Source: Candidatus Nomurabacteria bacterium (GTDB lineage: Bacteria; Patescibacteriota; Minisyncoccia; Phycocordibacterales; UBA9973). From it: 64,000 nucleotides of DNA. The DNA lies in the NCBI GenBank assembly GCA_026395965.1, contig JAPLXS010000006.1, forward strand, positions 118,683 through 182,682, in the 5' to 3' direction. Shown here in pieces: positions 15,896 through 17,951 of this stretch. The notes beneath the pieces are model-generated. The model was given only the letters and a program-made list of their open reading frames with translations, did no database searches and had not been told where the DNA came from. Position 1 is the stretch's first letter; each line of letters begins with the position of its first letter. Position numbers and translations under genes: made by a program.

Positions 15896-16957
15896 TTATA
15901 CTAAATAATCCTTACTTGAAATACCTCTATCTTCAAACTCTTCTTTCATCATTAAAACAACTAAATCTTTAAATTTAATATTTGTATCCCAGTTTAGTTT
16001 CTCTTTTGCTTTTGTGCTATCACCCAAAAGTATATCTACTTCAGATGGTCTGTAATATGTGGGGTCGATACTCACCAACACTTTTCCAGATTTTTCGTCT
16101 ATACCCTCTTCATTTAAACCTTCGCCTCTCCATACTATTTTATAGCCCACAAGCGAAGCAGCCTCTTCTACAAACTCTCTCACTGTATGAGTCTCTCCTG
16201 TCGATATAACATAATCATCTGGGGTGTCTTGCTGCAACATGAGCCACATAGCCTCTACGTAGTCTTTTGCATAACCCCAGTCTCTCTTTGCTTCTAGATT
16301 TCCTAGAAATATCTTTTCTTTTTTACCAAGTTTTATATCGGCCAGACCTTCTACTATTTTTTTGGTTACAAAGGTTCTACCTCGTCTTGGGGACTCATGA
16401 TTAAAAAGTATTCCATTACAAATAAACATACCATATGAATCACGATAATTATTACATATCATATGTGAAAAAACTTTGGCACAACCATATGGACTTTGTG
16501 GATTAAATGGAGTTTTTTCACTCTGAGGAACTTCTGATACTTTTCCAAACATTTCACTAGAACCTGCTTGATAGAATTTTATTTTAGGATTGGCTTCTTT
16601 TATTACATCAAGCATGCGAAGAGTTCCAAGTGCGTCCACATTTGCAGTATATTCTGGAATATCAAAACTTACTCTCACATGACTCTGTGCTCCAAGATTG
16701 TATACCTCCTCTGGATTACTTAGTTTTATTACTCTTAAAATACTATTTGAGTCAGAAAGATCACCATAATGAAGTATTAGATTTTTATTGTCGGTATGGG
16801 GGTCTTGATATATTTTTTCCAATCTTTCGGTATTAAAACTTGATGACCGTCTTATCATTCCGTGAACTTCATACCCTTTTTCTAAAAGTAATTCTGCTAG
16901 ATATGAACCATCCTGACCTGTGATACCTATTATTAGTGCTCGTTTTTTTGTTTTCAT
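15896..16957 (-). CDS. gmd: GDP-mannose 4,6-dehydratase
   Basis: [27 protein letters not shown] and full-length Gmd family conservation. Confidence 0.9.
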
Positions 16958-17001
16958 AATTTATTATGGTTTATTTATTAATTACTATTATCGAAAAATA
17001 T

Positions 17002-17622
17002 TTATCGCCAGCTTTCTGGCAATACTATATCTCCAACAGAATCAGAAATAATACCAGCGAACTGACTTTCTTTCAAAACTCCTTCGCGAATCTTTTTAAC
17101 AAAAGAAGCGATCTTTTTTAATTCTATTGTGTTTTTTTCATATGGACTAATAACAACTACAGGTAAATTTAATTCTTCTATTACTATTTTTATTGGTTCT
17201 ACTAAATCAGAGTCATTGGAAATAACAATAGCCATATCATAAAGACCTTTATATCCATCATTTATTAAATGGGATGCTATATTAACATCTGTTCCTTTCT
17301 CTTCTGTTTTTATAACCTTTGTATATCCTTTTTCTTCAGCATTCTTCATCAAAATAGAATGAGTTAAAAAAGTCCCTTTTATAATTTCAACATTGGGTAA
17401 AGTTTTTAAAGCACGAAGATACACTTGTTGTCTATTTGGCTTGTCATAATCAGAATCATTTTCTCTTATTTTTACCAGAGCTGTAAAATATTTTATTTTT
17501 GAAATTTCATGATTTGGGAAAAGTAAACAAGATAATTTATTGATATTAAGCCATTTATATTTACTATTTTTAAAACAACCATAATATAGATTAAATCCGT
17601 CTATGTATACGTGGAGTCTCAT
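17002..17622 (-). CDS. NYN/PIN-like domain protein
   Basis: MRLHVYIDGFNLYYG is an NYN-type N-terminal motif. The acidic residues are conserved. Confidence 0.5.
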   Translation of the reverse strand: MRLHVYIDGFNLYYGCFKNSKYKWLNINKLSCLLFPNHEISKIKYFTALVKIRENDSDYDKPNRQQVYLRALKTLPNVEIIKGTFLTHSILMKNAEEKGYTKVIKTEEKGTDVNIASHLINDGYKGLYDMAIVISNDSDLVEPIKIVIEELNLPVVVISPYEKNTIELKKIASFVKKIREGVLKESQFAGIISDSVGDIVLPESWR

Positions 17623-17855
17623 TTCAATATAATACTAGTAAAATGCAGAAACCGCAACTTACGTTGCGGTTTCGCGTCCTGCCACCGAAGCAACAAGAGA
17701 TGTACTTATATATTACCATTATACTTTTACTAAAGTCAAGTAATTACTCTAATTTATATATGATAATATTCTCCAGTGATAAATGGACCTTTCCTTAGCA
17801 TTGTTTAATTATATTAAACCTATTACCCTTACGTAAGGACTGTCCTTGCAAGTTC

Positions 17856-17951
17856 TTAAACTTCATACCCTTTTTCTAAAAGTAATTCTGCTAGATATGA
17901 ACCATCCTGACCTGTGATACCTATTATTAGTGCTCGTTTTTTATTATTCAT
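17856..17951 (-). pseudogene. duplicated 5' fragment of gmd ([31 protein letters not shown])
   Basis: About 85 nt are identical to 16870-16957 and then reach an immediate stop. The fragment abuts the stop codon of the 17953..20070 gene. Confidence 0.6.

Follow-up and report, generated by a model that had tools for sequence, protein, structure and literature searches.

A duplicated gmd 5′ end brackets a predicted NYN nuclease and small-RNA module in a Candidatus Nomurabacteria glycan locus

The closest described counterpart of the gene considered here is HEC-09, a candidate defense gene embedded in Hma (helicase-methylase-ATPase) operons (PADLOC PDLC04163) whose representative, according to the HEC-09 passages of its source paper, adopts a MARF1-like NYN fold and showed no anti-phage activity (bioRxiv 10.1101/2024.01.29.577857). 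We analyzed a 64-kb window (the whole stretch of DNA under study), part of a 333-kb contig of a Candidatus Nomurabacteria metagenome-assembled genome (MAG), in which an NYN-domain gene of this family lies between two copies of the 5′ end of gmd, the GDP-mannose 4,6-dehydratase gene. The window gene is like HEC-09 in its full-length profile match and MARF1-like fold, and two homologous loci (L010 and L007) reproduce the embedded context, with the NYN gene between SNF2 helicase and DUF1156 methylase genes. It is unlike HEC-09 in standing in a glycan locus (Wzy_C, gmd, fcl, and glycosyltransferase genes) rather than in a defense operon. The terms "duplication" and "direct repeat", when searched for, gave no match in the HEC-09 paper, and its passages on HEC-09 and NYN describe no associated RNA (bioRxiv 10.1101/2024.01.29.577857). 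In the literature searched, we found no paper linking NYN genes to an RNA motif, an integron, or duplication scars.

Several other systems resemble parts of the locus. Campbell-type insertion-duplications and the att duplications of genomic islands integrated in tRNA genes or at gene ends share with it direct repeats of a gene end, a single complete gene copy, and outer flanks of which one is resident and the other donor-derived; as is typical of integrase islands, the end of the target gene is directly repeated in the window, one of the two ends being a surrogate that came with the element. The window insert differs in having neither integrase nor replicon and in spanning only 910 nucleotides (nt), and that a circle served as intermediate is a hypothesis. 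Insertion sequences of the IS1634/IS1549 group leave long direct repeats of variable length and carry a DDE transposase and defined inverted ends. Their flanking duplications, from tens to more than 100 bases and variable between insertions, are comparable to those described below, whereas the NYN module has neither a transposase nor defined inverted ends. Integron cassettes find a parallel in two homologous loci (L062 and L095), where a unit composed of a ~190-nt leader, the NYN open reading frame (ORF), and a 4-16 nt tail lies between attC-like repeats; the repeats flanking the window insert are instead gmd coding sequence, not attC sites, the imperfect palindromes of RYYYAAC...GTTRRRY form that bound cassettes. 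Type III toxin-antitoxin systems (ToxIN) combine an RNA antitoxin of tandem repeats, a terminator, and an endoribonuclease gene.

A duplicated gmd start around an NYN gene

A repeat search of the window recovered the direct duplication of the gmd 5′ end that the initial annotation had placed on either side of an NYN gene. The pair (16865-16958 and 17859-17952) extends over 94 nt at 97% identity, with a spacing of 994 nt. Alignment resolves an exact core of 84 consecutive identical bases (16865-16948 = 17859-17942), and since the same 84-mer stands in both copies, a chance origin is impossible. The three mismatches all fall within codons 2-3, where gmd reads ATG AAA ACA and the copy reads ATG AAT AAT; upstream of both ATGs and beyond GAAGTT, the two copies are unrelated. 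The repeats enclose 910 nt of unique DNA and constitute the sole coding-sequence duplication in the window, in which all other repeat families are tandem or hairpin-like. As had been proposed, the upstream copy forms a 31-codon gmd pseudo-start that abuts the preceding Wzy_C-TPR gene: its ATG lies 1 base past the Wzy_C stop, and its translation matches positions 1-24 of the Pfam GDP_Man_Dehyd profile (E = 1e-8). The genes run on the minus strand throughout, in the reading order Wzy_C-TPR, 31-codon ORF, non-coding stretch, NYN, gmd, GIY-YIG, fcl, and glycosyltransferase genes:

17953-20070, minus strand: Wzy_C/O-antigen-ligase-like membrane protein with a TPR tail, the resident upstream gene (Pfam Wzy_C, E = 4e-15)
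17856-17951, minus strand: gmd pseudo-start of 31 codons (MNNKK...GYEV, then stop), the upstream repeat copy (ORF, repeat, and Pfam match)
17740-17858, minus strand: 119-nt stretch from the repeat end to the cassette promoter, holding both palindromes; outside the conserved NYN-module region
17710-17739, minus strand: sigma-70-like cassette promoter (-35 TTGACT at 17739-17734, 18-nt spacer, -10 TAATAT at 17715-17710, TG upstream)
17638-17704, minus strand: conserved 67-nt RNA with two hairpins, P1 and P2 (covariance model R1), ending 15 nt before the NYN ATG
17002-17622, minus strand: predicted NYN-domain nuclease gene of the HEC-09 family, 206 amino acids (Pfam NYN, PADLOC HEC-09)
16959-17001, minus strand: 43-nt spacer from the NYN stop to the ATG of the real gmd; a hairpin with a T run at 17003-17024 overlaps the NYN stop
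15896-16957, minus strand: intact gmd (MKTKK...), whose first 94 nt are the downstream repeat copy (Pfam GDP_Man_Dehyd, E = 3e-147)
15596-15853, minus strand: GIY-YIG gene, 85 amino acids (ORF)
14664-15599, minus strand: fcl, with glycosyltransferase genes next

Two palindromes had been noted at the upstream junction, and both are present (17827-17838 and 17835-17847), but their number is no higher than chance: the window holds 39 perfect palindromes of 12 nt and 34 of 13 nt, against 31 and 29 in shuffled sequence, and they were rejected as recombination sites. The 119-nt left flank in which they lie is similar to none of the ~170 loci that we fetched. No tRNA or tmRNA stands at the junction, there being none in the window. 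On the other side of the insert, gmd is probably shielded from upstream transcription by the terminator of the RNA and by a further hairpin at the NYN stop (17003-17024); there are weak promoter-like sites across the 3′ end of the NYN gene.

Misassembly had been raised as a concern for such a structure, and an independent assembly of run SRR20698642 (Logan, k=31) addresses most of it. One Logan contig (L001, 970 nt, 100% identical) consists of the unique 910-nt insert with 30 nt of repeat at each end, and another (L166, 99.76% identical over 2,934 nt) opens with the same 30-mer and runs into the real gmd. Together they place the joins from truncated copy to insert, from insert to repeat, and from repeat to gmd in the reads, that is, both exits from the repeat and one of its two entries; the entry from Wzy lies outside that support. 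A misjoined population mixture, in which an uninterrupted Wzy-gmd chromosome coexisted with a separate 994-nt circular or tandem molecule of repeat plus insert, is in our judgment highly improbable. It gains from the fact that a k=31 graph cannot separate the configurations and that the Logan contigs end precisely 30 nt inside the repeat. Yet the junction from codon 31 to TAAGAAC and that between the spacer and the MKTKK repeat both occur in the reads of the independent assembly, an 84-nt repeat should be exceeded by usual read lengths and by the larger k-mers of MAG assembly, the 994-nt circle would have no replication gene, and the same architecture appears in unrelated assemblies.

The NYN protein, its RNA partner, and their distribution

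The NYN gene, correctly recognized in the initial annotation, is the only ORF of at least 60 amino acids in the insert, and its product is, from sequence and model, a predicted NYN nuclease. It matches Pfam PF01936 at 31.5 bits, against a cut-off of 24.2 (residues 2-172), and the PADLOC HEC-09 profile over its full length (E = 6.5e-45; protein residues 2-205, profile positions 3-202 of 203). An AlphaFold (AF2) model reaches a predicted local distance difference test score of 91.8, and its best Foldseek matches in the PDB are 2qip (VPA0982, E = 4e-8) and the MARF1 NYN domains 5yaa and 6fdl, with a target-normalized template modeling score of 0.69. Six acidic residues (D8, E107, E108, D112, D137, and D139) are invariant in a sequence alignment of 42 homologues. 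NYN domains are known as RNases.

Ahead of this gene lies a conserved RNA. The hairpin previously noted between the repeats does exist, at 17648-17673 and followed by a T run; rather than being a feature of the junction, however, it is the terminator stem of the cassette's small RNA. In that RNA, P1 is a hairpin with a UUCG loop, and P2 is the long hairpin at 17648-17673 followed by CUGCAUUUU, in the shape of an intrinsic terminator. The minimum free energy is -31.2 kcal/mol (z = -4.9). We compared the upstream regions of ~160 homologous NYN genes from genome and metagenome collections and built a covariance model (R1) from a seed of 15 sequences, whose fold consists of two helices with compensatory changes in 17 of the 21 pairs. 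The model scores the window RNA at 74 bits (E = 7e-27), its sole match in the 64 kb. Across 102 distinct RNA sequences, 93.7% of cells are paired, double (compensatory) changes occur in 20 of the 21 pairs, and the covariation score is 0.56, compared with 0.21 in shuffles and at most 0.12 with slid partners. The motif stands beside nearly every one of the ~160 NYN genes, in many phyla, with one covariance match per gene, and related loci show a TTGAC(T/A)...TAnnnT promoter arrangement at the same distance from it.

At about one-fifth of the loci, the RNA is encoded on the other strand, at a distance of 70-150 nt upstream of the NYN gene and facing the end of an unrelated convergent gene, so that it represents a separate small-RNA gene and not only a 5′ leader. 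Judged from sequence, this divergent arrangement shows that the RNA should be able to act in trans. Loci of this type are L041, L045, L054, L056, L057, L059, L061, L064, L074, L079-L081, L117, L121, L122, L125, and L126, together with L131, L135-L137, L139, L142, L145, L147, L149, L151, L153-L155, and L158. The subgroup includes many Acidobacteriota genomes; in it, the RNA is transcribed away from the NYN gene, and conservation continues ~20 nt beyond the terminator. Antisense control of NYN by the RNA was considered and dropped: for 30 divergent-type loci, the duplex energies between the RNA and the NYN start do not improve on those of shuffles (mean z = -0.22). We infer that the RNA is a partner of the nuclease, either antitoxin-like or regulatory.

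Searches of Rfam with the leader RNA of the window and of 16 related loci returned no family at threshold. Below threshold, full-length matches on the correct strand were obtained to BSnc120 (24.5 bits), Hrs13 (18.5 bits; presumably from Erwinia), and Xoo2 (15.1 bits), all far below the gathering thresholds of 114 (RF02621), 52, and 45, respectively. These families resemble the RNA only through such weak full-length matches and differ from it in being species-specific; no Rfam family covers the widespread NYN-associated motif. In Brucella, BSnc120 is seen as an 89-nt transcript on a Northern blot (PMC9751625). The matches suggest that an NYN-associated transcript has already been observed experimentally in Brucella and possibly in Erwinia and Xanthomonas.

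The comparison with type III toxin-antitoxin systems is instructive at the level of organization. As in ToxIN, an RNA with its terminator (17704-17638) and the nuclease gene (17622-17002) follow one promoter (17739-17710), and the whole is a small mobile module that occurs on plasmids and in integron cassettes with its own promoter. The NYN RNA is unlike the ToxIN antitoxin, however, in being a single two-hairpin unit of 67 nt with no tandem repeats and in being divergent in roughly a fifth of loci, and NYN does not have the ToxN fold. In its order and in its presence on plasmids and integrons, the module recalls type III toxin-antitoxin and abortive-infection systems.

Few small cassettes are distributed as widely among bacterial phyla as this module. 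More than 7,700 NYN homologues at 45-83% identity were found in Patescibacteria, Chloroflexota, Acidobacteriota, Gemmatimonadota, Proteobacteria, Spirochaetota, and other phyla, including on 250 plasmid records and in one mycobacterial prophage. Two Gemmatimonas-like contigs (L062, 4028-6959, and L095, 2804-5804) contain series of attC-like imperfect palindromes (CCTAAC...GTTAG, 100-113 nt) of the kind seen in chromosomal integrons, and the NYN-plus-RNA unit forms one cassette of each array. The enterobacterial module occurs only on a 3,461-bp plasmid and in none of 5,426 chromosomes; Escherichia coli was accordingly dropped as a model set for insertion polymorphism. That plasmid (L164, NZ_CP091696.1, from E. 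coli and Serratia) contains only a helix-turn-helix gene, a VbhA-family antitoxin gene, and the NYN module with its RNA (match at 3061-3120), and it could serve as an experimental model. In another locus (L037), the promoter-plus-RNA region is present twice (1628-1697 and 3546-3617), bracketing three unrelated ORFs between the first RNA copy and the NYN gene, which points to an insertion with flanking duplication inside the module itself.

Origin of the duplication

The two gmd starts in the window correspond to natural alleles. The closest gmd proteins are P0122 (94% identical, MKTKK start) and P0124 (88%, MNNKK start), and their loci (L162 and L163, respectively) have neither an NYN gene beside gmd nor the RNA; this comparison with related genomes had been suggested as a check on the insertion. 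In L163, a syntenic Wzy_C-epimerase-gmd-...-fcl-GT11 locus, gmd starts ATG AAT AAT AAA AAA, identical to codons 1-5 of the window pseudo-start. In L162, which has a DUF3800 gene directly upstream, gmd starts ATG AAA ACT AAA AAA, and the functional gmd of the window (ATG AAA ACA) is of this P0122/L162 type. The resemblance extends upstream, as the last ~18 nt of the 43-nt spacer and the first gmd codons are like the native region ahead of gmd in L162. No mosaic structure was found in gmd: the functional gene is 87% identical to L162 and 82% to L163 at the nucleotide level, uniformly along its length and with no breakpoint. Of 78 positions in the repeat core, 14 differ from L162 and 16 from L163, and both window copies encode AELLLEKG where the relatives have AEFLLEKG. 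The shared Leu and these 14-16 differences indicate that the copies are identical by copying and not by common descent. The codon 2-3 differences, each matching a natural allele, argue against a simple transposon-type target-site duplication and favor recombination. As a separate observation, a 545-residue gmd homologue (P0123) has an internal tandem duplication of ~190 residues, its segment ending ...DLENLK present twice, which is either real or an assembly fault in another MAG.

With some reserve, we favor homology-assisted insertion-duplication of horizontally acquired DNA, not transposition, as the origin of the structure. The donor, order of events, and recombination route that we infer are as follows. 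The 910 nt would be a horizontally acquired, self-contained module of promoter, 67-nt structured RNA with terminator, and NYN gene. Its donor, either a related bacterium or a small DNA circle, would already have carried it ~43 nt ahead of a gmd of the MKTKK type; module homology normally stops 1-5 nt from the NYN stop codon, so the 43-nt spacer lies outside the conserved module. The recipient gmd would have begun with MNNKK directly after Wzy. One junction would have formed by homology within the first ~90 nt of gmd and the other, from gmd codon 31 to TAAGAAC..., by illegitimate joining. Either of two routes could have produced this: Campbell-type insertion-duplication, with one crossover of a circle that bore a 5′ fragment of gmd, or a replication template switch that went back to the resident template at codon 4. 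The product would read resident upstream sequence, MNNKK start, 84-nt core, insert, donor MKTKK start, 84-nt core, and the rest of gmd, leaving an intact gmd downstream and a 31-codon relic upstream. The sharp boundary of the repeat, in which 84 identical bases give way to 3 mismatches within 6 nt and then to unrelated upstream sequence, supports this course of events. Recombination between the 84-nt repeats could in turn cut the cassette out precisely, as a 994-nt circle, and leave a single gmd.

Several observations weigh against this reading. Had donor and resident gmd belonged to different lineages, their 84 nt would not be expected to match exactly; a conspecific donor, a re-copied resident template, or later gene conversion would be needed. 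The likeness of the spacer to the L162 upstream region is short and AT-rich. Of the two repeat entries, independent read support covers the one from the insert and not the one from Wzy. We found no relative at strain level in which the site is empty; the closest Wzy homologue (L163) is 73% identical, and the ancestral state is therefore deduced from relatives that are 82-87% identical in gmd; searches with the exact gmd, Wzy, and upstream-of-Wzy proteins likewise found no identical record. Finally, homology-assisted entry cannot explain the first arrival of the module beside many different targets, for which de novo duplicative insertion is also needed.

The last point is best seen at other NYN loci, around which the initial annotation had advised looking for the same direct-repeat structure. 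When the 1.2 kb before each NYN gene was compared with the 1.2 kb after it, 27 of 151 loci proved to have flanking direct repeats; among shifted control positions, the figure was 11 of 172. When a geometry filter modeled on the window was applied (upstream copy ending at most 300 nt from the ATG, downstream copy starting at most 70 nt past the stop), 6 of 120 NYN genes passed compared with 1 of 582 neighboring control ORFs (p = 1.4e-4, two integron arrays excluded). The same scar thus recurs. Flanking host duplications with window-like geometry are present in L010, L007, L020, L021, L022, L086, L110, L115, L127, and L158. Duplications outside the window measure 33-134 nt at 81-100% identity, and the duplicated segments are host sequence that differs from locus to locus, with one complete copy of the host gene kept each time. 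The targets include the following:

L010: 5′ end of a DUF1156 DNA methylase gene, behind a SNF2 helicase gene; 100 nt, 82% identical
L007: 5′ end of a gene of the same DUF1156 methylase family as in L010; 68 nt, 88% identical
L127: 5′ end of an aminotransferase gene; at least 117 nt, exact
L158: 3′ end of recO; 91 nt
L022: 3′ end of a spoU methylase gene; 62 nt
L021: terminal part of an aromatic-lyase gene together with its terminator; 114 nt, 95% identical
L086: stretch following metG; 39 nt
L067: 3′ half of tRNA-Leu; 46 nt, exact

In L010, the first codons of the two copies differ (MPYRKK and MSNYRKK), as they do in the window. About 85-90% of NYN loci have no duplication, and about 1 locus in 10 keeps a long one. 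Insertion of an NYN cassette with target duplication, or a recombination scar, had been the initial interpretation, and it is supported by the relatives whose gmd has no NYN, by the varied contexts of the module, and by these recurrent scars. The accompanying suggestion of cassette mobility within the glycan locus needs widening, as recO, spoU, aminotransferase, DNA methylase, and tRNA genes are targets elsewhere and mobility is thus not peculiar to glycan loci.

The main rival for the window is de novo duplicative insertion without a donor gmd, which we consider unlikely for this locus. The module DNA would have been captured at a long staggered break or by a microhomology-mediated template switch, duplicating 84 nt of the resident gmd (codons 4-31); the right end of the insert would by chance have supplied an in-frame ATG AAA ACA accessible to ribosomes, and selection would have kept a functional gmd. 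Copies identical over 84 nt are what a single template would give, and 33-134-nt duplications beside many unrelated genes, some at intergenic targets (L021 and L086), leave no prior association to be assumed. Against this stand codons 2-3, which in each copy are natural alleles, an outcome with a chance of ~0.002 per hexamer at base composition by our estimate, and the right end of the insert, which resembles a native gmd upstream region.

A bolder proposal is that the RNA and the NYN nuclease together mobilize themselves, as an autonomous element of a new kind without a conventional recombinase: the nuclease, possibly with the RNA, would cut target DNA at widely staggered positions, and repair would leave target duplications of 30-130 nt. 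If true, it would explain how such genes come to be "embedded" in operons and defense systems. Flanking duplications are enriched specifically at the NYN gene, the module is compact and ends at a stop codon, and it is extremely widespread, with its >7,700 homologues reaching plasmids and integrons. A precedent for long direct repeats of variable length exists in a few insertion sequences, of the IS1634/IS1549 group. The absence of phage defense in the HEC-09 test, as given in the HEC-09 passages of the source, would also fit. The ends of the module, however, do not look like those of an element. Between related modules in differing contexts, nucleotide homology runs from about -65 to -160 relative to the ATG to 1-5 nt from the stop codon, and the unrelated flank varies from 15 to 155 nt on the left and from 5 to 60 nt on the right, even among related modules. 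Among the modules compared, we found no terminal repeats, inverted repeats, or shared end sequence. ORF and Pfam analysis found no tyrosine or serine recombinase or integrase in the insert or in the window between 15.5 and 20 kb. Each locus has a single NYN match, and one identical NYN protein is present on 24 contigs, always with the same neighbors, a finding on which recent jumping was rejected. The lack of a recombinase in the insert and this single context on 24 contigs speak against active transposition. Together with the 85-90% of loci that have no duplication, a domain known from RNases with no recombinase fold found, and an RNA without variable loops able to encode targets, these features make an autonomous element improbable.

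The L067 locus invites a further explanation. There, the NYN module and a 150-residue ORF occupy a 1.5-kb islet, flanked on one side by a complete tRNA-Leu gene (4494-4574) and on the other by 46 nt that exactly copy its 3′ half (2912-2957), and no integrase is present in the islet. By analogy, the window could hold a decayed site-specific integrative element that had entered the gmd 5′ end and provided a surrogate start, with the 84-nt repeats as attL and attR and the integrase deleted later. A gene-end duplication with a surrogate start is indeed the classic att arrangement, and L067 is a fitting example. On the other hand, the 910-nt insert contains no integrase or remnant of one, the distance from NYN stop to repeat is mostly 5-60 nt and leaves no room for arm sites, and many integrases of different specificity would be needed, each reduced to the same tiny cargo. 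We regard this origin as very improbable.

Further features of the window and significance

Other features of the window bear a looser relation to the NYN insert. Between gmd and fcl, the GIY-YIG gene is enclosed by a perfect inverted repeat with arms of 15 nt (ATCACGTATGAAATA, 15595-15609, and TATTTCATACGTGAT, 15858-15872), both of them unique in the window. As L162 (in which gmd and fcl are adjacent) and L163 have no GIY-YIG gene, this looks like a second small insertion in the same operon. A DUF3800-II RNA (Rfam RF02961, 49 bits; 6267-6329, plus strand) adjoins a DUF3800 gene (6356-6901, minus strand) and forms another pair of gene and structured RNA. A heptamer-periodic motif, AATTAGGAATTAGGAATT, recurs at seven intergenic sites between 22019 and 29909 (22019-22106, 22419-22494, 22690-22731, 23836-23902, 26505-26540, 28243-28284, and 29861-29909), and the string GAATTAGGAATTAGGAAT is also found in the left flank of the NYN insert of an unrelated contig (L110). 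In an ORF of 1,878 amino acids (43857-49493), tandem repeats of 51 nt (17 codons) form long arrays that have a higher-order period of ~1,224 nt. The nusG gene is flanked by two 55-nt copies of a long hairpin (30115-30169 and 31288-31342, 82% identical); these and the other direct repeats of the window were rejected as gene-end duplications, being hairpin/terminator-like or similar to repetitive extragenic palindromic elements.

The scar itself is an ordinary kind of event, and it records how a surface-glycan operon gained an accessory nuclease module horizontally while gmd was kept. The wider pattern, an uncatalogued RNA partnered with HEC-09 and recurrent gene-end duplication across phyla, looks new and testable; the RNA pairing, the spread of the module, and the duplication footprint appear to be unreported in the literature searched. 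The pairing of HEC-09 with a strongly covarying RNA outside Rfam suggests a two-part RNA-protein system, and it may explain the negative defense test of the HEC-09 protein that the relevant passages of its source paper describe. The long gene-end duplications at about 1 in 10 loci offer a testable footprint of how genes become embedded in operons.

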